From NCBI GenBank assembly GCA_016211215.1, contig JACQSR010000018.1:1-54334 (forward strand): a stretch of DNA of 54,334 nt. The letters are read 5' to 3'. Under the pieces are notes generated by a model that saw nothing but the letters and a program-made list of their open reading frames with translations, did no database searches and was not told the origin of the DNA. The stretch is from Candidatus Woesearchaeota archaeon (lineage in GTDB: Archaea > Nanobdellota > Nanobdellia > Woesearchaeales > JACQSR01). A program made the position numbers and the translations under genes. Shown piece after piece: positions 26,173 through 54,145 of the stretch (within the stretch, counting starts at the first letter, position 1; every line of letters begins with the position of its first letter).

Positions 26173-27099
26173 ATGAAAAAGCTGCTCAAGATTGTAGTGC
26201 CGGTTGTGGTCTCAATAGCCCTTCTTGCTTACCTTTTATCGCAGATTGACATGGGCAGTTTCGTGCAAGTCCTTAAATCAGCATCAATCCCACTTGCTGC
26301 GCTGTCCTTTCTGTTTTACGGATTATGCCAAATCATCCGTGCGCTGCGCTTCAGGCTGCTAATCGGCAAGCGCATTGGTATTGTTAACATGATAAGGATA
26401 TCTTTCATCCACAATCTTGCCAACAATTTACTGCCCGCGAAAGCCGGAGAGCTTTCCTATGTTTACCTGATAAAAAAATCAGGCCTCAGGTTTACATTCA
26501 GCATTTCATCCCTCATAGTTGCGCGTGTTTTTGACCTGGTGGCACTTTCACTCCTGCTTATCCTGTCATTGCTGTTCGCCAGTATTCCTTTCGCATTGCC
26601 GGGAAGTGTCTTAACAGCCGCTTTCCTTGTGTTCATTCTTGGCATTGCACTTGTTTTTATGCTCTTATTTTTTACCAAGAGGATTTCCCCTATTTTGAGG
26701 AGGCTATGCCCAAAGAAGTTCCTGGGGCATCTTGATGATACATTGCAGATTATGGAGTCTCATAGGGGCAATATCCCATCAATAACATCCCATTCTGTCC
26801 TGATATGGGTGCTGCACCTTTCTTCTTTCTACTTTCTCGCCGCTTCCCTTGGCGCGGGAATTTCTTTCTGGCAGGCAATCTTCATTTCGGTGTTTTATGT
26901 TTTCCTTCCAGTCCTGCCGTTCCATGGGATTGCCGGGTTTGGCACTTCCGAAGCGTACTGGACAATCATGCTCGTGCTTTTTAGCATGCCCAGGGAAAGC
27001 GCAATTGCCCTTTCTTTCGCCCTTCATTCCCTGAACGTCCTGTTCTATGTAATCCTTGGAGTTTACGGATTTGCAACATTCCCAAAAGAAATCACTTGA
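26173..27099 (+). CDS. Lysylphosphatidylglycerol-synthase-TM / UPF0104 flippase-like membrane protein
   Basis: IRALRF, NNLLPAKAGE, RVFD, GFGTSEA; polytopic. Confidence 0.8.
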   Translation: MKKLLKIVVPVVVSIALLAYLLSQIDMGSFVQVLKSASIPLAALSFLFYGLCQIIRALRFRLLIGKRIGIVNMIRISFIHNLANNLLPAKAGELSYVYLIKKSGLRFTFSISSLIVARVFDLVALSLLLILSLLFASIPFALPGSVLTAAFLVFILGIALVFMLLFFTKRISPILRRLCPKKFLGHLDDTLQIMESHRGNIPSITSHSVLIWVLHLSSFYFLAASLGAGISFWQAIFISVFYVFLPVLPFHGIAGFGTSEAYWTIMLVLFSMPRESAIALSFALHSLNVLFYVILGVYGFATFPKEIT

Positions 27100-28024
27100 G
27101 GACAGACATTATGGAATAATATTCCTGCTTCTTGCTCGAGAAATATGTCTTTACAAGTATATCCGATATCACGCCTAAAATAATAAACTGAACCCCCAAA
27201 ATAAGAAGAACCACTGAAAGCAGCAGCAAAGGCCTGTTTGCCAGGGATTGGCTGTAAATCAGCTTTAGCGCCATAAGGTAAAGCCCAATTGCAAAACCTG
27301 TAAAGCCCATTATCATTCCCAACCCTCCAAACAGGTGCATAGGCCTTGCGGAATACTGCATCCAGAATTTTACAATGAGCAAATCCAGGAATCCCCTAAG
27401 CACCCTTCCTATACCGTACTTCGTCTTCCCGTGTTTTCTCGGAAGATGGTTGACCTTAATCTCCCCCACCTTGAACCCGCGCCATAGTAGTATTGCTGGA
27501 ATGAACCTGTGGGTTTCCCCGAACAAGTCCAAATTCACAAAGCAATCCCTCCGGTACGCCTTCAGGGAACATCCGGAATCGTGTATTTTTTCTCCAGTCA
27601 AAAGTTTCCTGAAGGAATTCGCAAGAACAGATGTAACCCTTTTTCCCAGCGGGTCCCTCCTGCTGGCCCTCCATCCTGAAACGCAGTCGTACCCTTCGCC
27701 CAGCTTTTGAATCAGGCGCGGAATGTCATTTGGGTCGTTCTGCAAGTCAGCATCCATTGTAACTATTACTTTTCCGGATGCCATTTTGATACCAGCATCA
27801 AATGCAGCGGTTTGCCCAAAATTCTTCCTGAACCTCACGCACTTAACGTGTTTGTCCTGGGCATGCAGCCTCTCAATAACTTCAAATGTCCTGTCCTTGC
27901 TGCCGTCGTCCACAAATACAACCTCATAATCCTTCCCCCTCAATACATCCGCCAGAGATTTATGCAAAAGGGGTATGTTTTCCCACTCATTATATGCAGG
28001 TACAACGATGCTGATTTCAGTCAT
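27092..28024 (-). CDS. Glycosyltransferase family 2, ArnC/GtrB-like with two C-terminal TM helices
   Basis: PAYNE, DDGSKD, NFGQTAA, DADLQND, DSGCSLKAYR, HRFIP. Confidence 0.9.
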   Translation of the reverse strand: MTEISIVVPAYNEWENIPLLHKSLADVLRGKDYEVVFVDDGSKDRTFEVIERLHAQDKHVKCVRFRKNFGQTAAFDAGIKMASGKVIVTMDADLQNDPNDIPRLIQKLGEGYDCVSGWRASRRDPLGKRVTSVLANSFRKLLTGEKIHDSGCSLKAYRRDCFVNLDLFGETHRFIPAILLWRGFKVGEIKVNHLPRKHGKTKYGIGRVLRGFLDLLIVKFWMQYSARPMHLFGGLGMIMGFTGFAIGLYLMALKLIYSQSLANRPLLLLSVVLLILGVQFIILGVISDILVKTYFSSKKQEYYSIMSVLK

Positions 28025-28491
28025 TTTCTTGCCCCAATAATCCTGTTTAACATGCCTGTAGTCGACAGCCCTTTATATTTCTTTATGAGGTGTACCCTTC
28101 CCCCATATTTCCTCACAGTCTCAGCCTCAATGCAGTTTTCTCCGTACTCTTCGCCGTTGCAGTGCACATCCGGCTTAATTGCCTCAAGAAGCTTTCTCGG
28201 GTCGTCTTCATCAAATATAACAACATAGTCAACCATCTCCAGAGCGGATATCACGGCCGCCCTTGAATCCTGGTTGTTTATGGGCCGGTCTTTGCTTTTG
28301 TATCGCTTGATTGATGCATCCGAATTTAATCCCACGATAAGCACATCCCCCTGAGATTTCGCTTCTTCAAGAAATTTTATGTGCCCCAAATGAAGTATGT
28401 CAAACGCCCCGTTGCATGTTACTATCTTCCTGCCTTCCTTCTTCAGCTTTTCCGCAATTTCCGCTATTTCATTCCGGTTTTTTAGTTTCAT
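28021..28491 (-). CDS. rfaE2: D-glycero-beta-D-manno-heptose 1-phosphate adenylyltransferase (HldE domain II)
   Basis: NGAFDILHLGH, VGLNSDASI, RPIN, FDEDDP, GLSTT. Start moved to 28491. Confidence 0.88.
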   Translation of the reverse strand: MKLKNRNEIAEIAEKLKKEGRKIVTCNGAFDILHLGHIKFLEEAKSQGDVLIVGLNSDASIKRYKSKDRPINNQDSRAAVISALEMVDYVVIFDEDDPRKLLEAIKPDVHCNGEEYGENCIEAETVRKYGGRVHLIKKYKGLSTTGMLNRIIGARK

Positions 28492-29008
28492 TTTCCGCAA
28501 TCCATTCCGCAGCATCCCGCAGGTCCGATGCAATGTAATCCGCGCTCCTGCCCGTGCTTTTCTCCGTGCCGAATGCACCCGAGCTCACGAAAACGGTGAT
28601 GCATCCCGCGTATTTTCCCATCTGGATGTCCCTGTCCTGGTCTCCAATCACATAGCTCTTTCCAAGCTCGACATTGTGCTTTCTTGCAGCGTCATGAAGC
28701 ATCTTCGGCGAAGGTTTCCTGCACTCGCATTCGTCTTCCTTGGCATGGAAGCACGCAAATACATCATCCACATCCCCGATTTCCTTCAGAAGTGCATTTG
28801 TAAAGTTACGGAAATCCTCCCTCGAGTATATGCCTAGACCAACACCCGATTGGTTTGTTACTATGAACATCTTGAACCCCAGATTTGACAAAAGCTTCAT
28901 CCCCTCTCTTGCATTTTTTGCCAAAGACAGGTGCTCAGGCTTATGGGGATAGCCATTTGTGTCTGAATTAAGTACACCATCCCTGTCAAGAAAAATCGCC
29001 TTGTTCAT
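28469..29008 (-). CDS. gmhB: D,D-heptose 1,7-bisphosphate phosphatase (HAD-IIIA)
   Basis: FLDRDGVLN, TNQSG, CFH...CECRKP, IGD. Confidence 0.9.
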   Translation of the reverse strand: MNKAIFLDRDGVLNSDTNGYPHKPEHLSLAKNAREGMKLLSNLGFKMFIVTNQSGVGLGIYSREDFRNFTNALLKEIGDVDDVFACFHAKEDECECRKPSPKMLHDAARKHNVELGKSYVIGDQDRDIQMGKYAGCITVFVSSGAFGTEKSTGRSADYIASDLRDAAEWIAENETKKPE

Positions 29009-29961
29009 ATGCTCCCTTCCAGCTCCTCAGCAGTAACCGATGAAGTGCCAAGCTTCCCTACCACAATTCCTGCAGCATAGTTTGCGAGCAACGCAGCATC
29101 TTTAAGGGAAGCACCTGCAGCAACTGCCAAGCCCAAAGTTGCCACCACTGTATCTCCCGCACCGCTGACATCAAACACTTCCTTTGCATGCGTTTCGACT
29201 TTTGTTACCTCATTCCCGTCAAACAGAACCATTCCCTTCTCTCCCCGGGTTATCAGAACAGCGCATCCAAGTTTTGACGCAAGAAGATTCCCAAGCTCAG
29301 TTACCTTTTCATCGGTGCATTCACGCCATCCTGCAAGCTCGCATGCCTCCTTTAGATTGGGTGTTATCAGGTAAGCATTTTTGTACTCCACCTTGTTGTC
29401 CGGCTTTGGGTCCACGATAACTTTCACGCCCCTGGCTTTGGATATTTCCGCAATGAAATCAAGCACTCTCTGAGTTACAAGCCCCTTTGCGTAATCTGAA
29501 ATCAGCACAACCTCTATGTCGTCAATTATTGACTCTATCCTGCGTATGATTTCCCCCTCTATTGGGCTGCCGATGGTTTCCCTGCTCTCGTGGTCTATCC
29601 TTATGAGCTGCTGCTTTCCCCCCATCACCCTTACCTTTCTGGTTGTCGCGCGCATATTATCAGTTATTATGCCGCGCGTGCTTATTCCCCTTTTCTGCAT
29701 CTCTTCCTGCAGCTGCTTCCACGAATCGTCATTTCCAACTACTGCGATTATGAGCGCTTCCCCGCCAAGCGAGGTTATGTTGGCTGCGGTGTTTCCTGCC
29801 CCGCCTATGGTATAATTTTCCTTCTGAACGTCCACCACCTGCACCGGGGCTTCCGGCGATATTCTTGACACGTTCCCCCAGATGTACTTGTCAAGCATTA
29901 TATCGCCTATCACAAGCACCCTCTTGCCCATCATGTTCCTTATCAGGCTTATTAGATTCAT
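29005..29961 (-). CDS. rfaE1: D-glycero-beta-D-manno-heptose 7-phosphate kinase (HldE domain I)
   Basis: GDIMLD, RISPEAPV, GGAGN, SDYAKG, TPNLKE, DVSGAGDT. Confidence 0.93.
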   Translation of the reverse strand: MNLISLIRNMMGKRVLVIGDIMLDKYIWGNVSRISPEAPVQVVDVQKENYTIGGAGNTAANITSLGGEALIIAVVGNDDSWKQLQEEMQKRGISTRGIITDNMRATTRKVRVMGGKQQLIRIDHESRETIGSPIEGEIIRRIESIIDDIEVVLISDYAKGLVTQRVLDFIAEISKARGVKVIVDPKPDNKVEYKNAYLITPNLKEACELAGWRECTDEKVTELGNLLASKLGCAVLITRGEKGMVLFDGNEVTKVETHAKEVFDVSGAGDTVVATLGLAVAAGASLKDAALLANYAAGIVVGKLGTSSVTAEELEGSI

Positions 29962-30857
29962 GATATCCCGTTCTCCCTGAAATAATCCTTTATCCCTGCT
30001 GCCAGGCTGTATTTTGCGGCAAAGCCGATTTTTTCCTTTGCCCTGGACACCTCAGCGCAGGTAAGATTCTGGTAAAACCCGTATGGATTGTCAAAATAGT
30101 CCGGCTCGAGGTTCTTTCCCAGCACCTCGTTCAGATTTTTTACCATTGCGTTAAATGATTCCGGCTTTCCGGTCCCAATGTTTACAATGCAGCTTTTCTT
30201 TGCCTCCATTGCGCTGAGGTTTGCCTCCACAACGTCCTTGACGTAAATGAAGTCCCTTTTCTGCTCCCCGAACTTGAATATTCTCGGCCTTTTTCCTGCT
30301 TTCATCTGCTGCGCAAGCTGGTAAGCCATTGATGATGCATGCCTCTTGTAGCTTTCCCCCGGACCGTAAACATTGAAGTACCTTAATCCCACAATAAGCG
30401 GAATGCTTCCGTCATAGTTCCTTGCAATCTTGTCCATCTCGGCCTTCGACCTTGCATATGCATTCAGCGGGTTTAGTTCGTCGCTCTCCTTGTTTGGCGC
30501 AGCATTGTTCCCGTAAACTCCCGCGGAACTTGCGTAGATTAGCTTTGCATTGCACGATTCTGCAAAGAATATTACATTTCTGAATCCTCCAACATTTGCA
30601 TCCATCATCTCCTTTTCATCTTCAATTAATGTGTCGGTTATTGCAGCCTGGTGGAAGATAACATCAACTTTTCCCAGCGCTGAAAAATCAAAATGCGCAA
30701 CATCCCCGTAAACAACATTTCCTGCAAACCCCTTTAGGTTTTCCTTCTTTGAACCCCTAAAGTCATCCACAACAATTACCTCGTGTCCCAAAGACTCCAG
30801 CTTCAAGGCAAGATTCGAGCCGATAAACCCTGCTCCTCCAGTTACCAATATTTTCAT
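29958..30857 (-). CDS. hldD: ADP-L-glycero-D-manno-heptose 6-epimerase
   Basis: TGGAGFIG, HQAAITDT, ASSAGVYG, YARSK, RYFNVYGPGE, YQNLTCA; lies inside the heptose operon. Confidence 0.85.
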   Translation of the reverse strand: MKILVTGGAGFIGSNLALKLESLGHEVIVVDDFRGSKKENLKGFAGNVVYGDVAHFDFSALGKVDVIFHQAAITDTLIEDEKEMMDANVGGFRNVIFFAESCNAKLIYASSAGVYGNNAAPNKESDELNPLNAYARSKAEMDKIARNYDGSIPLIVGLRYFNVYGPGESYKRHASSMAYQLAQQMKAGKRPRIFKFGEQKRDFIYVKDVVEANLSAMEAKKSCIVNIGTGKPESFNAMVKNLNEVLGKNLEPDYFDNPYGFYQNLTCAEVSRAKEKIGFAAKYSLAAGIKDYFRENGIS

Positions 30858-31414
30858 GTTAGCACCTCTTCAGTAATCTCTGCGATTATATGCAAAATCA
30901 TGATGTGCATTTCCTGTATCCTTGGGGTGTTTTTTGATTCAACATTTATGTTAACGTCGGAATTTTTCATCTTTCCGCCATCGTTTCCTGTCAATGTTAT
31001 AGTCCTGCATCCAATCTCTTTTGCCTTTTCAATACCCTTAATCACATTTGCGCTGTTTCCGGATGTGCTTAAGCCGATAACAACATCACCTTTACCTGCC
31101 AATGCCTCAATTTGCCTGGAAAAAACATTCTCAAAACCATAATCATTGCCAATTGCAGTTAGGATTGCAATGTCGGTGTTCAGCGCAATGCACGCATACC
31201 CCTTCCTTTCCTTCTTGTACCTTCCAACAAATTCTGCGGCAAAATGCGATGCCTGTGTTGCACTGCCCCCATTGCCCATTACAAGAACCTTTCCGTTGTT
31301 TCTCAGGCACTCTACAACCATATTTGCGGCCTCCGCTATATCAGCAGAAAGATTCTTTGTATCGTTGCTTACCTTAACATGCTCTTCAATCATCCTTCTT
31401 ATTGCTTCTTCCAT
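30854..31414 (-). CDS. gmhA: Phosphoheptose isomerase (SIS domain)
   Basis: GNGGSA, HFAAEFVGRY, TAIGNDYG, STSGNS, RIQEMH. Confidence 0.95.
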   Translation of the reverse strand: MEEAIRRMIEEHVKVSNDTKNLSADIAEAANMVVECLRNNGKVLVMGNGGSATQASHFAAEFVGRYKKERKGYACIALNTDIAILTAIGNDYGFENVFSRQIEALAGKGDVVIGLSTSGNSANVIKGIEKAKEIGCRTITLTGNDGGKMKNSDVNINVESKNTPRIQEMHIMILHIIAEITEEVLT

Positions 31415-31525
31415 TATTTCACCAAAAGTATGAACTATTCATACCTTTAATCGCCCTCCATATATAAATCTTTCTGTACAGAGATTTATTTTCTATATAG
31501 GGAATAATTAGAACCGCCCTTAAAC

Positions 31526-32110: not shown

Positions 32111-32379
32111 AACATCGGGTAATCAACAAACATTATTAAATTTATCGGGCCAGAACGCAACTCTTAGTTATGACTTACCCATGTTAGTGGGAAGCTGTTG
32201 CGTGAAAGTTTAAAACCCCCAGCCCCTTTTTTCCAATGCTATGGGTACATACCAAAAAGCTGTTAAGTATGAAATGGATTGCTGAGAGGATAAGGATGCA
32301 GTATGAGACCAAACTCCGCGGTTCGCAACCTGATGTGAAATTACTAAATCCTTAAATAGTCATACCTTTGCATACCATT

Positions 32380-33219
32380 ATGCACTCGGAAAAAGGAGCC
32401 GGATTTCTAATTTTTCTATGCATGCTTTACTTCGGTGTTTCAGGCATCATGGTCAAAGTTCTTGGCATAAGCCCTTCCTCATTGTATTCCCTTATGGCAT
32501 TTGGCCTTGGAATTGTCGGAATCGCAGTTTCAGTCTTAAGAAAGCAGGAATTCTTTTTCAGGAAATATTTCCTTTTCTACCTTATACTTGCATTCTTTTT
32601 CTCAATGAACGTAATAGCGTTCTACAAATCTTACCAGCTGACATCGCTGGCAAATGCTGTGCTTAGCCACTATACTGCCCCCATATTCATCGCAGTTTTA
32701 TCCCCATTCCTGCTCAAGGAAAGGCTTGAAACAGTGTCCATAGCTGCCCTTGTCATCTCAACAATTGGATTGTTTCTTATCGTTGGCCCGGAAAACATCA
32801 GCTTCGGCAACAATGACTTTTTGGGAATAATGTACGGAACACTGTCCGGATTTGGATATGCAATGCAGGTTATTCTTTACCGCCTGCACCCTGAGATAGG
32901 CGAAGGGCCTCTGATTGCCACTTCCTCCATAATCAGCCTGTTGTTTGTGCTGCCGTTTGCCAGCATAGGCCATTTCGGTTCGGCAAATTTGGCATTGCTC
33001 CTCCCGTATGCCATACTTACGCCATTGGTTGTCACCCTATACGCATTTGCGGTAAAGCATGTAAGGGCTCAATTCGCAGGCATAATCGGCTACACGGAAA
33101 TAATTTCAGTGACCATATTCGGGATATTCCTCCTCAACGAAATTCCAACAATGCTAACATTTATAGGCGGTTTGCTTATAATCGCAAGCGGACTGCTGAT
33201 CATAAGGAAGCTAAGATGA
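32380..33219 (+). CDS. DMT/EamA-family transporter
   Basis: About 10 TM helices; YTAPIF...FLLKE; IFLLNE...GGLLI. Confidence 0.85.
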   Translation: MHSEKGAGFLIFLCMLYFGVSGIMVKVLGISPSSLYSLMAFGLGIVGIAVSVLRKQEFFFRKYFLFYLILAFFFSMNVIAFYKSYQLTSLANAVLSHYTAPIFIAVLSPFLLKERLETVSIAALVISTIGLFLIVGPENISFGNNDFLGIMYGTLSGFGYAMQVILYRLHPEIGEGPLIATSSIISLLFVLPFASIGHFGSANLALLLPYAILTPLVVTLYAFAVKHVRAQFAGIIGYTEIISVTIFGIFLLNEIPTMLTFIGGLLIIASGLLIIRKLR

Positions 33220-33968
33220 AAAAGGAAAAAATCGCAATCAGCCTCGACAGGAATATCCTTGAACTGCTCGACTCTAAGGTGGACGGCTCGGTTATACGCT
33301 CACGCTCGCAGGCAGTTGAGTTTTACTTAAAGAAAGGACTGAAGGAGGAAAGCATAGACACGGCAGTTATTCTCCTGAAGGGAGAGCACCAGTCAATTGC
33401 AATGAGAAAATTCAAGGGAACCACGCTCATCTCATCCCAGATTGATTTTCTTGCTGCAAATGGAATAACCCATGTTTACATACTTACCCAGCACACAAAA
33501 ATCATCAATAATTTGCTCGAGGAGATTTCAAAGTCGAGGATAAAGGCGGAGATTATAGAGAAAGACTCAAAGGGAAATGCCTCTGCACTGGTTGCAGCCA
33601 AGGGCAGGATTGCAAATGACTTTATCGCAATGTCCGGCGATGTCTACAACCATTTTAATCTCAGGAGCATGATTGAGAAGCACAAGAACAACAATAAAAT
33701 GGCAACTATGGGCTTAATGTCAAGGGAAAAGGCCTCTGAATATGGAAATGTTATTCTTGACGGGGATATTATAATAGATTTCACCGAAAAGCCGAAGAAA
33801 GCGGAATCAAACATTGTCAACGCGGGAATTTACATCTTCAGGCCGGAAATATTCAACCTTCTCAGCCCGTCAACAATATCATTGGAAAGCGATTTATTCC
33901 CCGTGCTTGCAAGGCAAAGGCAGCTTCTTGGGTTCTTTACGCACGGCGAGTACGGGCATGTTATTTAG
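33216..33968 (+). CDS. Ribbon-helix-helix domain fused to a degenerate sugar-nucleotidyltransferase domain
   Basis: KIAISLD...SRSQAVE RHH, followed by AVIL, SGD, YG, FTEKP, VNAGIYIF, SLE. The GGxGTR loop is missing. Confidence 0.75.
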   Translation: MKKEKIAISLDRNILELLDSKVDGSVIRSRSQAVEFYLKKGLKEESIDTAVILLKGEHQSIAMRKFKGTTLISSQIDFLAANGITHVYILTQHTKIINNLLEEISKSRIKAEIIEKDSKGNASALVAAKGRIANDFIAMSGDVYNHFNLRSMIEKHKNNNKMATMGLMSREKASEYGNVILDGDIIIDFTEKPKKAESNIVNAGIYIFRPEIFNLLSPSTISLESDLFPVLARQRQLLGFFTHGEYGHVI

Positions 33969-34963: not shown

Positions 34964-35055
34964 TCATCGAGGTAATGCAAGATAACTTAAAAAGATTTCC
35001 ACGAGAAAAAGAAACAAAAAAATAAAGAATACTATTCCAACCTAAAATACTAAAC

Positions 35056-35211: not shown

Positions 35212-35309
35212 TTTTATTCCTCCGATATACGCTCAAAAGAAACTAGAATTCCTTTCTACGTACTACTAAGCATACAGAAACAGGTTTTCATTTAAAAAAC
35301 TATCGGTTT

Positions 35310-35702: not shown

Positions 35703-35703
35703 C

Positions 35704-42711: not shown

Positions 42712-42713
42712 TA

Positions 42714-45932: not shown

Positions 45933-46427
45933 TTAACCAAATGAATATTCCTCTAGCTTATAAATCTGGGCAACAAGAACTTCCTTCCAGTCTGCTATAA
46001 TTTGGCTGAACTGCTGCCTTATCCTCAGCTTTCTTTTTTCCAGGTCAGCCACATTTTTTACCAGCATTACAATGTAAATGTCGTAGTCCCCCGCCATTGC
46101 CATTAGGTTTATTACTCTTGGGTCTTTTTTCAGTGTTTGAATCAGGTTTTCATAATCCTTCTCTTTGATGTCCTTCAGCTTCAGGTATATATGAACCCCA
46201 ATTGGAAGCCCGATGGCGGCTGAGTCAACCTGCAGGGCATATTTGGTTATTACTTTGCCTTCCTCCAGTTTTTGAATCCTTTTCTTGATGGAATCGATGG
46301 ACAGCCCTATCTTTTTTGAAAGCTCTATGAGCCTTATTCGTGAATTCTCCCCCAGATAACCCAATATTTTCAGGTCAGTGCTGTCAATATCCCTTAATTC
46401 TTCGGTTTTAACCTTCTTTATTGCCAT
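45933..46427 (-). CDS. Lrp/AsnC-family transcriptional regulator
   Basis: DSTDLKIL..L.ENSR...ELSKKIGLS...RIQKLEE, GDYD. Start moved to 46427. Confidence 0.88.
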   Translation of the reverse strand: MAIKKVKTEELRDIDSTDLKILGYLGENSRIRLIELSKKIGLSIDSIKKRIQKLEEGKVITKYALQVDSAAIGLPIGVHIYLKLKDIKEKDYENLIQTLKKDPRVINLMAMAGDYDIYIVMLVKNVADLEKRKLRIRQQFSQIIADWKEVLVAQIYKLEEYSFG

Positions 46428-46548
46428 TTTTATCTTAATTATTAAGGAAATATATAAATCTATCCAAAAAATTAAGATAAAGTAATAGAAAAGTATAAAT
46501 AATCCTTGCATCCACATCCCCATTAGACAACTACTAAAAGGTAACAAA

Positions 46549-47487
46549 ATGACCTATCGACGAAAACAAATGGTCTATAACCCACCGGGAAAAATTGAAT
46601 TAAACGGGGATTATCCAGAATTTGGAAAATGGGTGAACCCTTCTGATTTAGATAGGAAGCATAAGGGAATAACACCAGAACAAGAAGAAAGAGGTTTGAC
46701 TAAGAAAACAGGGAATATTATTTTGATGGTTTCCAAGAGACTTGAGGACCTTGAGAGAATAAGTAACGAGTGCTCACCGGATATAAGCTCGGTTATTCCG
46801 GATGGAAAAAGTTATTCCAGAGAAGACGTAATTGGATTATTGGAGGATTTAACAATAACTTGGAAAACTCCCACCATATATGTTGGTAGGAGAGGAGACC
46901 TACGCCGTGCAGAAGAACAAAAATCCAACTTCAAAATTAATTTACAAAGAATGATTAATCAAGTTGATGTATACCTTGAAAATAGGCATAATTTCTATTT
47001 TGAAGAAATAGGTCACAGTTTTTACGACGATCAGCGATTATTGAAATATTGCCTCGCAATGGACCCTGTTTTTTGTTTTTTGGATGGTCTTGAGAAAATG
47101 ATTCGTGGTTGGAACTCACGCCTTCCCTCCGAAAGTGAATATCGTATAACCGGTTGTAAAATTTACGAACTACAGGAGTTAATCGAAAATAGAACAATGA
47201 AGAAGGAAACTTACCAAAAAATATTGAATGGTTCAAATCCGAAAATAAATCGCTTATTAAAATCATTTGAAGTGGCTATTAAACAAAAAACTCCCACCAT
47301 ACATATTAGAAATAATGATAAGTACCTTAATGGCTGCTTAGAATATCTTAAAAGAGAATTAAAAGGGGGCAGAGTCAGAAACCCCATTGAAGTAAGGCCA
47401 GGAATATTGTATGGCGGAGATAAAGAAGTTAAATATCAAAGGGATATGCAGGCTATGAGAGAACATTATGGAAAAAAATCCAAGTAA
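46549..47487 (+). CDS. Hypothetical protein
   Basis: 312-aa ORF in visibly AT-rich DNA. No motif recognised. Confidence 0.65.
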   Translation: MTYRRKQMVYNPPGKIELNGDYPEFGKWVNPSDLDRKHKGITPEQEERGLTKKTGNIILMVSKRLEDLERISNECSPDISSVIPDGKSYSREDVIGLLEDLTITWKTPTIYVGRRGDLRRAEEQKSNFKINLQRMINQVDVYLENRHNFYFEEIGHSFYDDQRLLKYCLAMDPVFCFLDGLEKMIRGWNSRLPSESEYRITGCKIYELQELIENRTMKKETYQKILNGSNPKINRLLKSFEVAIKQKTPTIHIRNNDKYLNGCLEYLKRELKGGRVRNPIEVRPGILYGGDKEVKYQRDMQAMREHYGKKSK

Positions 47488-47514
47488 ACATTTTTATTGA
47501 ATTTACCAGTAATA

Positions 47515-48120
47515 TTATCCTGCCAGCATCTTCCCGCTCTGCCACAGAAATCTCAGGGAGATAACAAGTATGATTACTGAATAGAGAACAGTTATTGCGC
47601 TGTCTATCCAGAAGAATCCTGTAAAGTACATTACAACTGCCCCACCCAAAATTGTAACCCAGCCGAGAACATCCTGCGCGTAATGCAGTATAAGGACTTT
47701 TATGTTTATGTTTTTTCTTTCTGATTTAAGCAATTTGTAGAATATAAAACTGTTAAAGGAGATCCCAATTACGCCCAGCGCAATAACCAGCCTGCTTTCC
47801 ACAGGCTCCGGCGAAGATATTCTTCCGACGGCCTCGTAAATCAGGTACAGAGAGCCTATAACCAACGCAAGCGCATTGGCGAAAGCAACTGCAACTTTAA
47901 GCCTTTCAAACCTCGGATGCCTGTGCTGCCTTGCAATCCTTTCAACCCACCATGAGAAGAACAAAGAAATAACATCGGTAAAATCATGCAGTGCATCAGA
48001 TATTACTGCTATGGAATTAGACAGCAATCCTCCTGCCAGCTCAACCAAAAAAAACACAAAGTTTACCACTACTCCCGAAAGCAAAACCTTCTCCTCGTGG
48101 TTAGATTCGTGAGACGACAT
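47515..48120 (-). CDS. Cation diffusion facilitator (CzcD-like), TM domain only
   Basis: SIAVISDALHDFTD, HYAQD. Ends just after TM6. Confidence 0.8.
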   Translation of the reverse strand: MSSHESNHEEKVLLSGVVVNFVFFLVELAGGLLSNSIAVISDALHDFTDVISLFFSWWVERIARQHRHPRFERLKVAVAFANALALVIGSLYLIYEAVGRISSPEPVESRLVIALGVIGISFNSFIFYKLLKSERKNINIKVLILHYAQDVLGWVTILGGAVVMYFTGFFWIDSAITVLYSVIILVISLRFLWQSGKMLAG

Positions 48121-49174
48121 CTTCAACAGATATGCTCTTCATGCATTTTTGGTAATCCTCGCCCCTGTAGTAGCAGTTCGGTATTTCCCCCTTGTGAACA
48201 TTAATGCAGGGGCTGTATTTGCAGATTTCCCCCTTGTAAATGCCTGTCCCTTTCAGAGGCCCGAACCTAACCGGCAGATTGGGCCCGAACAATCCTATTG
48301 TTCTTGTTCCCATCGCTGCTGAAATGTGCATCGGCCCGGAATCGTTGCCTATAAGGAGGGAGCATCTCTTGATGAGGTAAAAACTCTGCTGCAGCGTAAA
48401 TTCCCCGCATGAGTTTATGGGCTTGCCTTTCATCAGGCCTGCAACATCGTCATGCATCTTTGCTTCCGACTTTGACCCCATGAACACTATCCTTGCCTTT
48501 TTAGCGCCAATCAGAATGTCGCACAGCTTTGCAAACCTATCCTTCGGCCAAATCCTTGACGGAGCGCTTTCCGCAACCCCAACTGCAATACCAACAAGAA
48601 AATCCTTTTTCCTTACCCCCTTCTTCAGCAGGTAGTCATCAACTATTTGCTTATCCCGGGAACTGTATTTCAGCTGGGTAAGACCTTTCACTTTTTTTGC
48701 AATGCCAAGGGGCTTCAGCAAATCCATAAATGTCTGCGAGCAGTGCTGCCTGTCGTTGTATTTTACCTTATCGGTATAAAGCCTCGACCTTAAGCCGTGG
48801 GAATACCCCACTCTTCTTCCTGCAACAAAATAGGAGATTATCGAAGACACATTGAGGTACTCCTCGAAGTCTATTGCAGTGCCGTAAGAATTGCGGTTTT
48901 TTATTATGTAGCGCAAAACCGCAAAGGGGCTCGTGCTTATCACATCAACGTCAAAATCCCTGTATACATCCCTGTTTCTTTCTGTGGCAAGCACCTTTAC
49001 GTTCTTCATCTCATGAAGCGCAGGAAGTGTCAGTATTGACTCGCCAATGCCCCAAAGCTGTATCGCCAGGATTTTTCCATTTGCGGCCTTTCCTCTCCCG
49101 GGAAACAGCCCTAGAAGCACGCACCACAACCCGCCAATATACCTGTCCAGGAATCTTGTAAGCCTTACGTTCAT
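48101..49174 (-). CDS. Glycosyltransferase family 9 (heptosyltransferase-like)
   Basis: GIGESILTLP, RIWPKDRF, GNDSGPMHISAAMG, LFGP, CSPC-like CKYSPC, CMKSI. Confidence 0.9.
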   Translation of the reverse strand: MNVRLTRFLDRYIGGLWCVLLGLFPGRGKAANGKILAIQLWGIGESILTLPALHEMKNVKVLATERNRDVYRDFDVDVISTSPFAVLRYIIKNRNSYGTAIDFEEYLNVSSIISYFVAGRRVGYSHGLRSRLYTDKVKYNDRQHCSQTFMDLLKPLGIAKKVKGLTQLKYSSRDKQIVDDYLLKKGVRKKDFLVGIAVGVAESAPSRIWPKDRFAKLCDILIGAKKARIVFMGSKSEAKMHDDVAGLMKGKPINSCGEFTLQQSFYLIKRCSLLIGNDSGPMHISAAMGTRTIGLFGPNLPVRFGPLKGTGIYKGEICKYSPCINVHKGEIPNCYYRGEDYQKCMKSISVEDVVSRI

Positions 49175-49500
49175 TTTTTCCTTTCAAACGCAGTCTTCCT
49201 CACAACCTCTTCAAGCTTTTTCTGGTTCTTTCTCAGCAGAGTGTAGTTGAGGAAAACAACGCCAATGAGGAACATAAAGCCAAGCACGATATAAAAATCC
49301 ATTCTCCTCGCAAAATCAAGGCCACCCACAATCGGGTCAACTAAAGCAGGGAACAATGTTATCAGGATGAACACTACCCACAGCGCAGTCCACACCCCGA
49401 ATGCCTTCGCTGAAAATTCATTCCTCTTGAAATGCACGAAAGAGGTGTATATCATGAATATGCCGAAAAGCAGCCCCAGTATCTGAATTCCAAGTATCAT
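49171..49500 (-). CDS. DUF2304-family small membrane protein
   Basis: Three TM helices plus a C-terminal amphipathic helix; follows a GT2, the usual pairing. Confidence 0.75.
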   Translation of the reverse strand: MILGIQILGLLFGIFMIYTSFVHFKRNEFSAKAFGVWTALWVVFILITLFPALVDPIVGGLDFARRMDFYIVLGFMFLIGVVFLNYTLLRKNQKKLEEVVRKTAFERKK

Positions 49501-49527: not shown

Positions 49528-50184
49528 TTATTTTGCAATCTTCCACCATATCATGCTGAACACAATCTTTATCCCGTCCCATACGGTAGTTCCCTTGTAC
49601 CTGTCACCGTATATTGTCTCTATCGGAATTTCCCTGTACCGGAGATGGTTGTTCCCGACCTTTGCAATCATTTCGCTTTCCATCGAGTAATCAACCGCGC
49701 TCCAGCGTATTTTCCTGTAAACATCCGCCCTAAAGGCCCTATAGCCTGATTGTGTGTCTTTCAGGCTAATGCCGAACAGAACCCCGCACACGCTGTTGAT
49801 AAACCAGTTTCCAAACCTAAGCACGGCAGGCATTTTTTTGTTAAGCCTCCTGTAGCCAAACACTACGTCGGCATCCTTAAGCTCCGATATAAACCGGGGT
49901 ATTTCGCGTGGCTCGTGCTGTCCATCCGCATCCAAAACAACTATGATGGATGCACCTTCCCTTGCCGCATAATCGCACCCAGTTTTCAGCGCAGCCCCCT
50001 TTCCCAAATTCACGACATGCTGAAGCGTAACTGCGTTTCTGCTTGCAATTTCATATGTGTTGTCAGAGCTTCCGTCATCAACCACCACTATTTTGTCCAC
50101 AAATCCCTTTGTCTTCTCAAGAACTTTCCCAATCCTCTGCCCTTCGTTATAGGCAGCGATTACGGCCCATGTATTCTGCTTCAT
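49528..50184 (-). CDS. Glycosyltransferase family 2 (DPM1-like)
   Basis: AAYNE, DDGSSD, NLGKGAAL, DADGQH, DTQSGYRA. Confidence 0.92.
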   Translation of the reverse strand: MKQNTWAVIAAYNEGQRIGKVLEKTKGFVDKIVVVDDGSSDNTYEIASRNAVTLQHVVNLGKGAALKTGCDYAAREGASIIVVLDADGQHEPREIPRFISELKDADVVFGYRRLNKKMPAVLRFGNWFINSVCGVLFGISLKDTQSGYRAFRADVYRKIRWSAVDYSMESEMIAKVGNNHLRYREIPIETIYGDRYKGTTVWDGIKIVFSMIWWKIAK

Positions 50185-50301: not shown

Positions 50302-50595
50302 ATGCCTAAAATATTCGAGATAAAGGATAAAAGTGGTAGAAAAATATCCTTATCGCAGGAAAGATGGACGCACATTAACCAAGAGCACCCGGAAGTTGCT
50401 CCCCATATAGAAGAAATAAAGGAAACATTGGAAAATCCTATCCAAATTAAATCTTACGAATTTGATGAGGAAGTGAAATATTACTACAAACACTTAAAAC
50501 AGAAGCCTTTGGCAGGATATCTGCTGGTAATAGTTAAGTATTTAAACGGAGAGGGCTTTATAATTACATCCTACTTTGTAAGGAACATAAAATGA
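50302..50595 (+). CDS. Putative RelE/DUF4258-like toxin
   Basis: ERWTHINQEHPE...LLVIVKY...FIITSY; ATGA overlap with the DUF2283 gene. Confidence 0.6.
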   Translation: MPKIFEIKDKSGRKISLSQERWTHINQEHPEVAPHIEEIKETLENPIQIKSYEFDEEVKYYYKHLKQKPLAGYLLVIVKYLNGEGFIITSYFVRNIK

Positions 50596-50834
50596 AGGGT
50601 CCAATGAGGTTGCATTATGACGAGGAGGGTGACTTCCTGGAGATATCTATAGGCAAGCCGACGAAATGCTATGCGTCCGAAATAGAACCGGGAGTCTTCC
50701 TTAGGATAGATGAAAAAACAAACGAAGTAAGAAGTGTAGGAGTTATCGGGTTTAAAAAGCGTTCAAGGAAAATCGAAGACATAAAGCTCGATCTTCCAAT
50801 TGACATTAATTTCTCAGTCCCTGCTAGTTCTTAG
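50592..50834 (+). CDS. DUF2283-family putative antitoxin
   Basis: YDEEGDFLEI...GVFLRID...GVIG. Confidence 0.75.
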   Translation: MKGPMRLHYDEEGDFLEISIGKPTKCYASEIEPGVFLRIDEKTNEVRSVGVIGFKKRSRKIEDIKLDLPIDINFSVPASS

Positions 50835-50873
50835 CGTACAGAAATGAACTTTGAACGCGAAAAATCCAACAAA

Positions 50874-51194
50874 ATGGCTAAACAAAGGAAACTAAGGTGC
50901 GACTGCGGAGGATTCCTGGCAGAGCAAAAGACTGTTTTTGGCAGTTTTGAAACCGACGCCATGGCCTGCCCGAAATGCAGTTTTACAACCTTAACAAAGG
51001 AACAGGCAGAGAGATATGCAAGGCTAAAGCAGCTCCACTCCATAATTGATTCTGAGAGAAGGATAATCAAGATTGGGAACTCTATGGGGCTTACCTTGCC
51101 GGACAAGCTTCAGGAATTTGGTGCAAAGGTCGGAAAGAAGGTAAGAACAGAGGCATTGGGACCAAATTCATTCAAGGTGGAGCTTGTGGGCTAA
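50874..51194 (+). CDS. Zinc-ribbon + AbrB-like domain protein
   Basis: CDCGG...CPKC followed by RRIIKIGNSMGLTLP. Confidence 0.75.
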   Translation: MAKQRKLRCDCGGFLAEQKTVFGSFETDAMACPKCSFTTLTKEQAERYARLKQLHSIIDSERRIIKIGNSMGLTLPDKLQEFGAKVGKKVRTEALGPNSFKVELVG

Positions 51195-54145
51195 CCCGCA
51201 GTAGCATTTCCGGTTTGCTTGAATGCTGGCAATAAATTCATGCCGCTTCCGTTCCAGTCAACCTTGTAGATGTATATCTGGCCCCCTCCGACAGTAGTCT
51301 GGTAGCTGAACGGCTTGAAATGCTCAAGGCCATGGCCTGCCAAAAAGAACATCCTCGTGAACATTCCGCCGGCTATTTCTGGGCTGGCTGCTATGTTTCT
51401 ATAGTTATTTCCATCCGGGAAAACCACTATGCTTACGCCTATTGTGTCATTGAAGCTCCTTTCCCTCATTCCATCTTTGGTTGCAAGCCAGAGCGCATTG
51501 GGGTGCATGATGCCGTTTCCTGTCTGCACATCTGCCTGAAGGGTCTCAAGGTTCACCCTGATTTTTGCTCCCTGAATGGAATCGCATTCAATTTCATTAT
51601 CGGCCAGCTTTCTGCATGCCTTTGCACCCGACTGGTATCCGGGCCATGGGGCTATCCAGTTGTTTGCATCCTCGCTCGTCTTTAGATTCTGTATTTCATA
51701 TGCAACATTGCTTGCCTGCTGCTCGGTCATGTTGAAGCGCTGCACCAAAAAGTCAACGCCCTTTTTGAAGTCGCTTGCGTATTCGGGCCTCTTCAGCGTG
51801 TTGTACATCAATGCCCTGTCAAAATTCCAGTTGCCGAAATGCGCCCAGACGCCTGACTTTCCGACCATGTCCTCCGACGCCACAAAGTAAGCCTCAGGCG
51901 GCTCGCAATGGGTGTGCTTCAGTACTTCATCCGCCTGCTCTGGGCTTAGGCCTTTATTCAGCAGAACCTTTCCCGCATCATCCTTTCCAAGCACCACAAT
52001 TTGGTGTATGATATCTATCGTCTTCGCAACGTCATTGACTGAAGGAAGCAGCTTGTCATATGCAGTATTCGCCCCGCAGTCAAGCATCCTCAGTATTCCA
52101 ACAGCCTCGTCTTCATTGCTTGTTGATAATATCCTTCCGACCCAGTGCGCGGGAGGTGAATCCTGGGATGTACCGTCAAAAGTAACCGGCCTGTTCCCTA
52201 TGTACTTGAACCAGTGCCCGAAGTCCCACCACGATGTTATAATGGAATTTTTGGATGCTTCCCTGTTTATCTTGTCCAGCGAGTTCCACCACCCATCATT
52301 CATGTCCGACACCTGCGCAGTTGCGGCATTGTACGAGGAGCTTAGAACATTCACAGGATAAACCAAAAGCATCAGGAACACAAGAACAACGGACAGCCTT
52401 GCTATCCTCCCGTCTATTTTCAGGATGTCCCTGAAGAATTTTGAGAAATAATCAGATAGTATCCCAAAAGATATTCCAAGAGCAAGCGCAAACGCAGGCA
52501 CTATGAGCAGCGTGAACCTAACTCCTTTGGTGCTTGCATATATGGTTGACACATACCACATTATAAGCAGCATTGTAAGGTTTATGTCCTCGAGGTCTTC
52601 CCTCTTTATTATGGATATTATGAAAAGTATTGCAATCGGAATGCTGATAAGGCCGAGGAACAGCAGCAAGTTCTGGGGCCTTAGTGCAAGTATCACTATG
52701 TACCATACCCCGCATCCAAGAATGTAAAGCCACTTTGTCTGGGCTTCAGCCTTTCTCCTCACCAGCGGCAGTACCATGCCAATCAGCGATAGGAAGAACA
52801 GGAACAAACTGCCTATCCCTGTCTGGTCTATTACCGAATTAAGGGACGCGGGAGTCTGCTCTGCAACTGTCGTGTAAACATTGGGCCATACCGTGCTTAT
52901 TCCAACTTCCTTAAGCTTTGTAAATCCTATCGGCCTTGCTATGGTTGCCTTGTAAAATATCTCCCCATTGGTGAATATTGCGACAAATATTCCGGAAAAC
53001 AGGAAAAATGCGGCAAGCACTATCAGCGCATTCTTGATTGACTGCTGGCCAAGAATTTTTCCAATCTTAAACTCGCCCCTGTGGATAATGGCATAATAAG
53101 CCATGTAAGCTATGATGGCAACAAGCAGGAAGTCAAATATGTACCACCAGCCGGACCATGAAAACGCGTAAAGTCCCACAAAGAAGCCGTTTAGCGCAGC
53201 AAGCAGTATCCTGTACTTTAGCGACTTTGCCCCCATGCATTCAAGGAAAAGCCAGGTTATGACAAGGGGGAAAAAGACGTTGTAGCCATCGGTGTCTGAA
53301 ATCCCTCCAAGTGTCCTCACAAGAAATGCAGGATGCACCGCAACAATTATGCCGGCAATCAGGCCCCCAAAATCACCTGCAATCCTCCTCGCCACAAAGA
53401 ATGCAGGAATTACCGCAAGGGCTGAAATAAGCACAGGAACATAAAAGGAAATGTGCATCAGCGAAACGTCGGGATTAAATAAGGAATAGATTTTGTAAAG
53501 GTATGCGATTAAGTAAGCGTGAAACATGTCTGCAGGAACAAAACGGCCCGTCGGAGAATTCATGTAAGTGTCATACGGCTTGCCATCTTTCAGTATGTCT
53601 CCGGGATGCCCGTTGTTCAATACATTTCTGGCGTGCCTCAGCCAGAAGAAAGGGTCTATTGCTATAAGGTAAGTGTCCCCGTTATCATCCTTGAACTGGG
53701 ATTTGAAGTACTGCGACGCGCTGTTGACATCTCTCTCAACCTGCGCTCCGTTCTTTGCCAGAAAGCTCTCAAACTCCCTGTCCGCCAATGCATTGATGTT
53801 CTGGTCAGGAAGATTCGGATACTGCTGCCTCACCTGGTTCCCAATCTGGTCTTTGTAAGAATTATAAACGACATTTTTCGCCCAATCATCTGTTGCCGGA
53901 AGGTACTGCGGCTGGATTCTGAGGTAGATTGACAGTATTAGCGGAATCAATACAAGCAGGAAAATGCCGTACTTTGAAAGAAAGCCTTTTGTTGCCTTAT
54001 ACGACTGCATAACGCCTTCCTTGACGCCTGAAAGGTCTATGTCATCTGATGCCTTTTGAGGTCCTTCAGAGCTTTTTGAGAAAAAATTCTTTATTTTACT
54101 GAAGTCTATCGAGATTTCGTCATCCTTCTCTTTTTTGTCATCCAT
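51191..54145 (-). CDS. aglB: Oligosaccharyltransferase AglB/STT3
   Basis: Polytopic N-terminal half with DPFFW, DTD, TVAE and RF motifs; SWWDFG; DMVGK. Confidence 0.92.
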   Translation of the reverse strand: MDDKKEKDDEISIDFSKIKNFFSKSSEGPQKASDDIDLSGVKEGVMQSYKATKGFLSKYGIFLLVLIPLILSIYLRIQPQYLPATDDWAKNVVYNSYKDQIGNQVRQQYPNLPDQNINALADREFESFLAKNGAQVERDVNSASQYFKSQFKDDNGDTYLIAIDPFFWLRHARNVLNNGHPGDILKDGKPYDTYMNSPTGRFVPADMFHAYLIAYLYKIYSLFNPDVSLMHISFYVPVLISALAVIPAFFVARRIAGDFGGLIAGIIVAVHPAFLVRTLGGISDTDGYNVFFPLVITWLFLECMGAKSLKYRILLAALNGFFVGLYAFSWSGWWYIFDFLLVAIIAYMAYYAIIHRGEFKIGKILGQQSIKNALIVLAAFFLFSGIFVAIFTNGEIFYKATIARPIGFTKLKEVGISTVWPNVYTTVAEQTPASLNSVIDQTGIGSLFLFFLSLIGMVLPLVRRKAEAQTKWLYILGCGVWYIVILALRPQNLLLFLGLISIPIAILFIISIIKREDLEDINLTMLLIMWYVSTIYASTKGVRFTLLIVPAFALALGISFGILSDYFSKFFRDILKIDGRIARLSVVLVFLMLLVYPVNVLSSSYNAATAQVSDMNDGWWNSLDKINREASKNSIITSWWDFGHWFKYIGNRPVTFDGTSQDSPPAHWVGRILSTSNEDEAVGILRMLDCGANTAYDKLLPSVNDVAKTIDIIHQIVVLGKDDAGKVLLNKGLSPEQADEVLKHTHCEPPEAYFVASEDMVGKSGVWAHFGNWNFDRALMYNTLKRPEYASDFKKGVDFLVQRFNMTEQQASNVAYEIQNLKTSEDANNWIAPWPGYQSGAKACRKLADNEIECDSIQGAKIRVNLETLQADVQTGNGIMHPNALWLATKDGMRERSFNDTIGVSIVVFPDGNNYRNIAASPEIAGGMFTRMFFLAGHGLEHFKPFSYQTTVGGGQIYIYKVDWNGSGMNLLPAFKQTGNATAG

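Follow-up and report, generated by a model that had tools for sequence, protein, structure and literature searches.

Heptose biosynthetic enzymes from archaea have been published which make adenosine diphosphate (ADP)-heptose in vitro, with Methanococcus maripaludis named in the authors' commentary on that work, where the purpose of the enzymes was called 'elusive' (Tang et al. 2024; PMC11573728). For archaeal N-glycosylation, the available passages of another study state that the known first- and second-step enzymes belong to glycosyltransferase (GT) family 2 (GT2) and describe Agl24 as the first Agl enzyme of archaea for which a GT-B structure was predicted (PMC8993221). In bacteria, GacJ was reported to form a complex with and stimulate GacI, an N-acetylglucosamine (GlcNAc)-phosphate-undecaprenol synthase, and Rv3632 to stimulate PpgS (10.1101/180810, in the passages available). 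The window described here, which is the whole stretch of 54,334 nucleotides of contig JACQSR010000018.1 from a Candidatus Woesearchaeota archaeon (GCA_016211215.1), was found to encode a complete set of ADP-heptose enzymes, a GT family 9 (GT9) enzyme of the heptosyltransferase type and the oligosaccharyltransferase AglB. Overall, the locus is probably a conserved Woesearchaeales N-glycosylation cassette in split form, which uses a bacterial-type sugar by placing heptose on the AglB-linked glycan. A total of 18 open reading frames (ORFs) between 20.5 and 54.1 kb were relevant to this finding.

The heptose genes formed an operon of six translationally coupled genes on the minus strand (31414-27092) in the order gmhA-hldD-hldA-gmhB-hldC-GT2. 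The initial annotation had described this operon with hldA and hldC named rfaE1 and rfaE2, and all of its genes were found there by profile scores and overlaps; the sequence showed 4-nt ATGA overlaps at four junctions and an overlap of 23 nt at gmhB/hldC. All five activities for ADP-heptose synthesis were encoded, with GmhA, HldA and HldD above their NCBIfam equivalog cut-offs and GmhB and HldC just below. The first gene, gmhA (30854-31414), encoded sedoheptulose-7-phosphate isomerase (TIGR00441 214.7 bits, cut-off 209.45; SIS_2) and was followed after an ATGA overlap by hldD (29958-30857), encoding ADP-glyceromanno-heptose 6-epimerase (TIGR02197 279.6 bits, cut-off 274.6). Next were hldA (rfaE domain I; 29005-29961) for a stand-alone heptose-7-phosphate kinase (TIGR02198 367.4 bits, cut-off 345), gmhB (28469-29008) for heptose-1,7-bisphosphate 7-phosphatase (beta-type NF006506 148.3 bits, below the cut-off of 178; alpha-type model 93.7) and hldC (rfaE domain II; 28021-28491) for heptose-1-phosphate nucleotidyltransferase (TIGR02199 174.1 bits, cut-off 181.5). 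The start of hldC is most likely the ATG at 28491 and not the ORF-opening GTG at 28578, because the long ORF matches the family only from residue 41 onwards and alignments with homologues start at the ATG. Upstream of gmhA, a putative archaeal-type promoter-like TTTATATA box (31461-31468, minus strand) about 50 nt before the ATG and a possible Shine-Dalgarno-like GGTGA 5-9 nt before it were recognised by eye.

The motif (F/L)XXGRSTT (STTR5) has been described as a hallmark of heptose nucleotidyltransferases that also accept cytidine or uridine triphosphate (PMC11573728). The C-terminal motif of the window HldC was KYKGLSTT, with Leu at the Arg position, and that of Escherichia coli HldE was DGCSTT, with Cys; Arg was found in none of six aligned sequences. 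As the window HldC is without the promiscuity-motif Arg, like E. coli HldE, use of ATP and formation of ADP-heptose would be the simplest expectation, bearing in mind that the motif predicts promiscuity when present and that its absence is no proof of ATP specificity. In a sample of 201 genomes of the order, HldD (E ≤ 1e-55) was found in 35 genomes, 32 of which were among the 70 genomes with a strong HldA kinase (E ≤ 1e-60). Because HldD was present in 32 of these 70, about half of the heptose-positive lineages, including the window genome, should make the L-glycero-D-manno (L,D) isomer and the others the D,D-isomer.

The second unit was a GT2-DUF2304-GT9 run (50184 to 48101), found where the initial annotation had placed it, with aglB (54145-51191) upstream, all on the minus strand. 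The Dpm1-like GT2 (49528-50184; PpgS/GacI/AglJ/AglK-like) is a putative synthase of dolichyl-phosphate (Dol-P)-linked N-acetylhexosamine (HexNAc) or hexose; its matches to PpgS (NF058614 124.3 bits, cut-off 370) and AglJ (TIGR04182 93.7 bits) were both below cut-off, and PpgS as the best NCBIfam model does not fix its sugar specificity. The DUF2304 protein (49171-49500; GacJ/Rv3632 family, PF10066 61.7 bits) had three transmembrane (TM) segments in a TM scan, and its gene overlapped that of GT9 by 4 nt. GT9 itself (48101-49174; PF01075 104.4 bits, cut-off 22) is a putative heptosyltransferase acting on a dolichol-linked acceptor and belongs to an AglB-linked DPANN clade. AglB (STT3 PF02516 152.8 bits) had at least eight TM-like segments and an intact WWDxG catalytic motif, as WWDFG at residues 639-643, and was the only STT3 found in the genome. 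A search for phosphoglycosyltransferases of the AglH/WecA/Alg7 type (PF00953) and the PglC type (PF02397) found none in the window genome (84% complete), and PF00953 was not found in the same-genus genome G105 or in G025 (one contig) and G028 (three contigs). PF00953 was present in 20 of 101 genomes of the order (a sample requested at ≥90% completeness, plus the window genome), or 20 of 99 at ≥90% completeness and ≤5% contamination. Since neither type was found, the Dpm1-like GT2 is, as judged from its family, the only recognisable candidate for lipid priming in the genome.

The AlphaFold2 model of GT9, built with 32 sequences, was a full-length GT-B fold with a predicted local distance difference test score (pLDDT) of 86.2 and a predicted template modelling score of 0.87. 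The best Foldseek matches were the Veillonella GT9 3TOV (2e-20), E. coli WaaF (1PSW; 4e-15) and WaaC (~1e-11), over about 330-356 alignment columns. Asp278 and His283 of the donor-side motif NDSGPMH were invariant in all eight aligned sequences including WaaC and WaaF of E. coli K-12, and Arg207, the basic residue before WP, aligned with the Lys of WaaC/WaaF. A conserved N-terminal helix (residues 3-22) was a feature of the clade. Sequence search produced 628 relatives at E ≤ 1e-10, of which 120 were listed at 46-66% identity. In a tree whose named bacterial references were from E. coli K-12 only, the window GT9 fell into one clade of 26 rows (support 96/88) together with all 10 AglB/DUF2304-adjacent GT9s, 11 database matches and four other heptose-adjacent GT9s, separate from E. 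coli WaaC, WaaF and WaaU. Two GT9s from another contig of the same genome (C1) formed a separate clade (97/98) nearer to E. coli WaaF, with long bacterial branches that make this placement unreliable. A search for fused GT9 proteins found four longer matches, none of which was a GT2 or DUF2304 fusion, so that there was no Rosetta-stone link, which is weak evidence. Three of the four were Omnitrophota proteins named lipopolysaccharide (LPS) heptosyltransferase II with 31-34% identity, and with GT9 as the sole family recorded for all four they are presumably tandem GT9-GT9 proteins.

In the order sample, HldA was above the curated cut-off in 42 of the 201 genomes, and GT9 was found in 87. A strong HldA and GT9 were both present in 67 genomes, HldA only in 3, GT9 only in 20 and neither in 111. 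Among the 69 genomes with a listed place for HldA, a listed GT9 was on the same contig in 48, within 10 kb in 39 and within 5 kb in 33. Relatives of the window AglB (E ≤ 1e-30) were present in 175 of the 201 genomes, and where the places of both AglB and GT9 were listed (64 genomes) the two shared a contig in 36 and lay within 6 kb in 27. Some of the genomes counted here are flagged as unpublished (G112, G121, G132 and G183); leaving them out gives 66, 3, 19 and 109 for the four classes, and AglB and GT9 within 6 kb in 26 of 63 genomes. Beyond the order, GT9 was found in 91 of 301 genomes of a phylum sample, with 21 of the 91 in other orders of the same class (including the unpublished G355).

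Twenty loci from 19 genomes, a non-random selection picked for long contigs with HldA near GT9, were fetched and mapped by BLASTP to the window proteins. A contiguous AglB-to-heptose block was found in nine of these 19 genomes, from eight families (G078, G169, G026, G187, G015, G140, G061, G073 and the same-genus G191). Its order was AglB, PpgS-like GT2, DUF2304, GT9, a divergent sugar-1-phosphate nucleotidyltransferase and gmhA-(hldD)-hldA-gmhB-hldC. The window and the same-genus genome G105 carried a split form of this block. Because the block is contiguous in relatives, the AglB-GT2-DUF2304-GT9-heptose linkage looks ancestral, with a split in the genus of the window. The link from the heptose genes and GT9 to AglB drawn by the initial annotation was in this way upheld by the conserved block in relatives but proved loose in the window itself, where AglB and GT9 are 2.9 kb apart with an insert between them.

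The window homologue of the divergent nucleotidyltransferase (33216-33968) was found with an EamA transporter on the plus strand (32368-33968), divergent from gmhA. Its position was kept in relatives, and a homologue with 48-81% identity adjoined the heptose genes in 10 of the 20 fetched loci. Judged against the compact arrangement in relatives, the region 34000-48100 was a spacer of unrelated genes, including two PIN genes, MgtC, ZnuABC-type metal uptake, Lrp and cation efflux genes among others. Between GT2 and AglB, which are directly adjacent in relatives, three small plus-strand ORFs (50302-51194) encoding a PBECR2 nuclease-like protein, a DUF2283 protein and a protein of unknown type made up a toxin-antitoxin-like insert of about 0.9 kb. 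It was observed that such toxin-antitoxin-like insertions, namely the PIN-domain genes of the spacer (35310-35702 and 38759-39175) and the PBECR2/DUF2283 pair, sit where the ancestral cluster is broken.

A gene for a protein of about 293 amino acids was also observed within the heptose cluster of five of the 20 fetched loci (L103:9956-10837, L104:10063-10953, L106, L111 and L114), lying between gmhA and hldA in L103 and L104. Its members were about 50% identical to one another and had no family match, with deoxyhypusine-synthase/ArgZ-like Rossmann scores below threshold. An HldD orthologue was in the operon of none of the five loci, and the gene was not found in the window genome. Its product may be an alternative heptose-modifying enzyme.

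The initial annotation had noted that no lipid A or 3-deoxy-D-manno-octulosonic acid (Kdo) genes were in the window, which held, and the genome-wide absence that it had asked to have confirmed stood for the families that were covered. LpxC, LpxB and WaaA (Glycos_transf_N) had no match in the 84.27%-complete genome, and KdsA, LpxA, LpxD and LpxK were not searched. The sole CTP_transf_3 match above cut-off, on contig C1, was considered as KdsB and rejected, as it lay beside NeuB and a 2-epimerase and was NeuA-like. With LpxC, LpxB and WaaA not found, the acceptor cannot be Kdo2-lipid A, and the system is not LPS.

The window genome (G000) was that of a tiny groundwater archaeon of the Woesearchaeota-type DPANN, with 1,062,683 bases in 35 contigs, 84.27% completeness and 0.49% contamination. 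The archaeal assignment of the initial annotation was borne out by several lines of evidence. The best relatives of the window AglB had 71, 67 and 58% identity and came from records named Nanoarchaeia, Woesearchaeota or Nanoarchaeota; the STT3 family profile matched four of 14 control genomes, which were exactly the archaea; a small subunit (SSU) rRNA fragment of the genome was archaeal (826 bits); and the same-genus genome G105 carried both halves of the window arrangement together on one 41-kb contig. Among the matches listed, the organism-named homologues of GT9 (16 of 16) and HldA (10 of 10) were likewise all from Woesearchaeota, Nanoarchaeota, Nanoarchaeia or Pacearchaeota. The window contig is archaeal and is not a contaminant. 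A bacterial origin or chimeric assembly of the contig is hardly credible, even though Gram-negative bacteria are where the heptose pathway and GT9 are typically found, the SSU rRNA fragment sits on a different contig (C30, the window contig being C7) and no single independent contig of a second study covered all of 30.5-50.4 kb. Against a chimera stand the presence of AglB with its DPANN relatives on the same contig, a guanine-cytosine (GC) content of about 0.44 that was even over contig and genome, and the low contamination estimate. Continuity of the contig follows from the tiling of 30.5-50.4 kb by contigs of three samples of the second study, the even depth there and the G105 contig.

Among the close relatives of AglB, many public records were titled 'uncultured Methanosarcinales archaeon' (for example loci L024, L029 and L033), and one 2-kb contig (L087) was titled 'Patescibacteria group bacterium'; these records are probably mislabelled or misbinned. 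Read depth in three independent metagenomes was about half over 46.4-47.8 kb (46436-47763), a stretch which contains a 312-amino-acid ORF of unknown type (46549-47487) and where GC dips to 0.378 (2-kb bin 46001-48000). Depth was two- to three-fold up over 34484-35147 in all three runs and about two-fold up over 41788-42451 in X3 only. These changes suggest that the population has a variable segment and repeated elements.

From these genes a route is inferred, including its nucleotide, its acceptor and the attachment to protein. The heptose operon would supply ADP-heptose, which HldD would epimerise to the L-glycero form. At the cytoplasmic face, the Dpm1-like GT2 with its DUF2304 partner, a pair of the GacI/GacJ or PpgS/Rv3632 type, would charge dolichyl phosphate with HexNAc or hexose in the manner of AglK/AglJ, and GT9, with its WaaC/WaaF-like GT-B fold, would move heptose from ADP-heptose to this Dol-P-linked sugar instead of to Kdo2-lipid A. 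The glycan may be lengthened by the other two GT9s, which lie on contig C1. The lipid-linked glycan would then be flipped, with a flippase-like protein (26167-27099) and a Wzx-like protein on contig C1 as candidates, and AglB would transfer it to Asn of surface proteins. The initial annotation had proposed heptose on an AglB-linked, lipid-linked, non-Kdo acceptor, and the order-wide synteny and co-occurrence support this proposal, which we continue to treat as such. In a bolder form that we advance tentatively, Woesearchaeales and sister DPANN orders could long have kept the compact cassette, and a distinct GT9 clade, marked by Glu as its catalytic base, a membrane helix at the N-terminus and a metal site of Cys and His, could heptosylate GacI/GacJ-type Dol-P-HexNAc.

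Several observations weigh against heptosylation of an AglB-linked glycan at this locus. The units of the window are separate, with about 17 kb from the heptose operon to GT9 and an opposite-strand insert from GT2 to AglB, and therefore co-transcription cannot be argued there. Related genomes are not independent, so that the co-occurrence statistics overstate the case, and at 84% completeness the absences in the window genome are provisional. The product of GacI/GacJ-type pairs in bacteria is a donor for an outer-face GT-C enzyme and not a primer. For GT9, sequence alignment to solved GT9s covered the C-terminal donor half only and not the N-terminal acceptor half, and the WaaC, WaaF and WaaQ equivalog models were all below cut-off (best TIGR02195 80.4 bits, cut-off 134.6). 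Glu45, invariant in 32 clade members, aligned with the GD-motif Asp of E. coli WaaC and WaaF, the catalytic base of WaaC; as read from the alignment, the change is conservative and GT9 function may be kept. Of the 87 GT9-positive genomes, 20, among them G017, which is 98% complete, were without a strong HldA, and because of these GT9 is not strictly tied to the HldA pathway; some of them may use a divergent second pathway type or another donor. Finally, an invariant Cys/His cluster (C318, C323, H327, C334 and C344) was present in the GT9 clade, in a region modelled with pLDDT 58-65, and TibC (4RAP, 4RB4) was among the Foldseek matches of GT9 at 8e-8.

The last of these points raises the possibility that GT9 is a TibC/Aah-like protein heptosyltransferase and would, in the cytoplasm, attach heptose directly to Ser/Thr residues of a surface protein. 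The Cys/His cluster near the C-terminus of the AglB-linked clade recalls what we take to be the metal site of TibC. This is improbable, as the LPS-type GT9s 3TOV, WaaF and WaaC matched better (2e-20 to 1e-11) than TibC (~1e-7), the cluster region was modelled at low confidence, and the conserved neighbours were a lipid-sugar synthase pair and AglB and not a substrate protein. Slightly less probable again is that GT9 uses a donor other than ADP-heptose while the heptose pathway feeds something else. The GT9-positive genomes without a strong HldA, the Glu at the catalytic-base position and the sub-cut-off heptosyltransferase scores would all fit such a donor; on the other side, GT9 was found in 67 of the 70 HldA-positive genomes and within 5 kb of HldA in 33 of 69, the donor-side NDSGPMH with Asp278 and His283 is conserved with WaaC/WaaF, and no alternative candidate for consuming ADP-heptose was noticed.

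Contig C1 carried a glycan island of about 40 kb with the two additional GT9s of the different clade. The stretch C1:18700-41200 (L007, L008) held a nonulosonic-acid cluster of DegT, a CBS-epimerase, the NeuA-like protein, NeuB and the 2-epimerase, followed by a GT2-GT9-GT2-GT9 run, an ABC-2 permease with its ATPase, a flippase-like protein and a GT4. A second, divergent set of heptose-type genes was also observed on this contig (C1:1283-11855; L124, L007), with a PfkB kinase (TIGR02198 114 bits), a GmhA-like SIS protein (TIGR00441 101 bits) and a 361-amino-acid fusion of an HldC-like nucleotidyltransferase and a GmhB-like phosphatase with the motif EERPLSTT. Around it were a short-chain dehydrogenase/reductase (SDR) epimerase/dehydratase, an RmlD-like reductase, a sugar C-methyltransferase, a B12-radical S-adenosylmethionine (SAM) enzyme, a radical SAM-SPASM protein and a Wzx/MurJ-like flippase. 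This second set may make a tailored (deoxy or C-methyl) nucleoside diphosphate (NDP)-heptose. Weak kinase paralogues like that of C1 (~110-140 bits) were listed in about 13 other genomes of the order.

The main rival explanation rests on this island. The heptose could be part of a lipid-linked surface polysaccharide or lipoglycan, lipid-anchored or attached otherwise and not transferred by AglB, and the adjacency to AglB would then reflect a general surface glycan island. On C1 the GT2-GT9-GT2-GT9 run lies beside a Wzm/Wzt-like permease and ATPase, the flippase-like protein and GT4, with the Wzx/MurJ-like flippase and the nonulosonic-acid cluster further upstream, which resembles ABC (ATP-binding cassette)-transporter-dependent polysaccharide loci. 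The C1-type GT9s are also in a clade apart from the AglB-linked GT9s. Against this explanation, the window-type clade sits in AglB-GT2-DUF2304-GT9 blocks (within 6 kb of AglB in 27 of 64 genomes), shares its clade with 10 of 10 AglB/DUF2304-adjacent GT9s and has no evident polymerase or ligase beside the window gene. In archaea, N-glycan assembly genes are usually located in GT clusters next to AglB. The polysaccharide explanation is thus unlikely, but it deserves more weight than any of the other rivals.

The sixth gene of the heptose operon (27092-28024) encoded an ArnC/GtrB-like GT2 with two C-terminal TM segments in a TM scan (PF00535 131 bits; NF007986 190 bits, below cut-off), a putative polyprenyl(dolichyl)-phosphate sugar synthase. 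Near it were the plus-strand gene for the flippase-like membrane protein (26167-27099; LPG_synthase_TM, PF03706 130.7 bits; TIGR00374 60.1 bits, cut-off 43.2) and, on the minus strand, genes for a GalE-like NDP-sugar epimerase/dehydratase (25139-26083), which was kept beside the ArnC-like GT2 in relatives, and for two paralogous polytopic membrane proteins of 758 and 775 amino acids (20570-25157). The latter had 8-9 TM-like segments and weak Pfam matches (DUF6541 27.3 bits; YfhO) and are YfhO/GT-C-like candidates for outer-face glycosyl transfer; their Atlas neighbours carry YfhO, PTPS_related and GT-C_AftD, and the GT-C assignment is a lead only.

The module of ArnC-like GT2, GalE-like epimerase, flippase-like and GT-C-like proteins was also found behind the heptose genes in G140, G190 and G102. 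Together with the overlap of the GT2 start with the hldC stop, this would suit a route in which the ArnC-like GT2 makes dolichyl-phosphate-heptose from ADP-heptose and the YfhO/GT-C-like proteins move heptose on the outer face. Across the order, orthologues of this GT2 (E ≤ 1e-60) were present in 46 of the 201 genomes, 17 with a strong heptose kinase, where about 16 were expected by chance, and 29 without. In several heptose-free genomes the GT2 lies beside AglB, and the neighbouring GalE-like epimerase suggests a UDP-sugar donor. The Dol-P-heptose route was mostly rejected on the chance-level distribution and is very improbable; we know of no precedent for polyprenyl-phosphate-heptose. The initial annotation had counted this GT2 as part of the heptose operon, which was correct for its coupling to hldC in the window but did not extend to a tie with heptose across the order. 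We read the module, from its families and distribution, as a putative independent Dol-P-sugar decoration system and not as a consumer of ADP-heptose, presumably of the Haloferax volcanii AglD/AglS kind.

Other genes of the window were observed as follows. Positions 1-20000 were also sugar-related, with a 1038-amino-acid membrane-anchored protein carrying a 3-keto-disaccharide-hydrolase (lectin-like) domain, a GT2, two SDR dehydratase/epimerases, a nucleoside triphosphate transferase, a DegT aminotransferase, two B12-radical SAM enzymes and a secreted 499-amino-acid protein with 10 N-X-S/T sequons. In the spacer, an ABC-3 (ZnuB-type) permease (44718-45932) had a C-terminal fusion to an iron-dependent repressor metal-binding and dimerisation domain, and a stand-alone DtxR-type repressor was found at 42666-43112.

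If the bolder form is true, the clade would provide the first example of a GT9 acting on a lipid acceptor other than LPS, N-glycosylation pathways of any kind would gain their first step that depends on ADP-heptose, and episymbiotic archaea would show L,D- or D,D-manno-heptose of the LPS-inner-core type on their surface proteins, which would explain archaeal manno-heptose. Confirmation of the cassette would extend the acceptor range of GT9 beyond Kdo-lipid A, add a GT-B/ADP-heptose step to archaeal N-glycosylation, the known early steps of which are GT2, and define a surface sugar of DPANN archaea, whose cells live in attachment to other microbes. The trait belongs to a lineage and is not a one-genome oddity, being found in about a third of the 201-genome order sample (70 with the kinase and 87 with GT9). 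A testable answer to why archaea make manno-heptose is offered, for a large archaeal lineage, by the locus and even more by the compact arrangement of relatives. The surface mimicry or virus evasion suggested by the initial annotation was supported by no evidence here. Its view of an undescribed system needs narrowing, as archaeal heptose enzymes are published and NCBI already auto-names these heptose and GT9 genes; no report linking GT9 or the ADP-heptose pathway to AglB was found in the open-access and bioRxiv literature.

Compared with known systems, the locus shares with the bacterial ADP-L-glycero-beta-D-manno-heptose pathway and WaaC/WaaF the same five enzyme families, the GT-B fold of GT9 and the donor-side Asp and His, and it encodes the kinase and the nucleotidyltransferase as separate proteins, like those bacteria that have HldA and HldC. 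It is unlike the bacterial LPS inner core in its archaeal host, in which LpxC, LpxB and WaaA were not found, and in its partners, AglB and the Dol-P-sugar synthase pair; unlike WaaC/WaaF, the window GT9 has Glu at the GD position, the extra N-terminal helix and the Cys/His cluster. As in euryarchaeal N-glycosylation (AglK/AglC/AglB of Methanococcus voltae and AglJ/AglG/.../AglB of Hfx. volcanii), AglB is next to a Dpm1-like GT2, the putative source of a Dol-P-sugar primer, and no AglH-type enzyme is needed. The euryarchaeal second-step enzymes known in the available passages are GT2 with a GT-A fold (PMC8993221), whereas the next gene in the window is a GT9 with a GT-B fold and a supply of ADP-heptose, and the window GT2 has a DUF2304 partner, so far known from bacteria. 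The pair resembles GacI/GacJ of Streptococcus pyogenes and PpgS/Rv3632 of Mycobacterium tuberculosis in having a GT2 of about 220 amino acids followed by a three-TM DUF2304 protein of about 110 amino acids, an order kept in relatives; the bacterial product feeds an outside GT-C enzyme, while the window product is proposed as the GT9 acceptor and then the AglB substrate.

The archaeal enzymes of Tang et al. differ in that the commentary gives no acceptor or transferase, whereas here a transferase and the AglB context are conserved across a DPANN order, and the window HldC is without the STTR5 motif. Chemical precedent for heptose in an archaeal N-linked glycan is given by Thermoplasma acidophilum, where the heptose is D-glycero-D-galacto-heptose and no genes are linked to it in the passages available (PMC11407970, PMC12448462). 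Overall, the cassette is a real and widespread new variant of archaeal N-glycosylation, with inferred biochemical steps, rather than a new kind of system.

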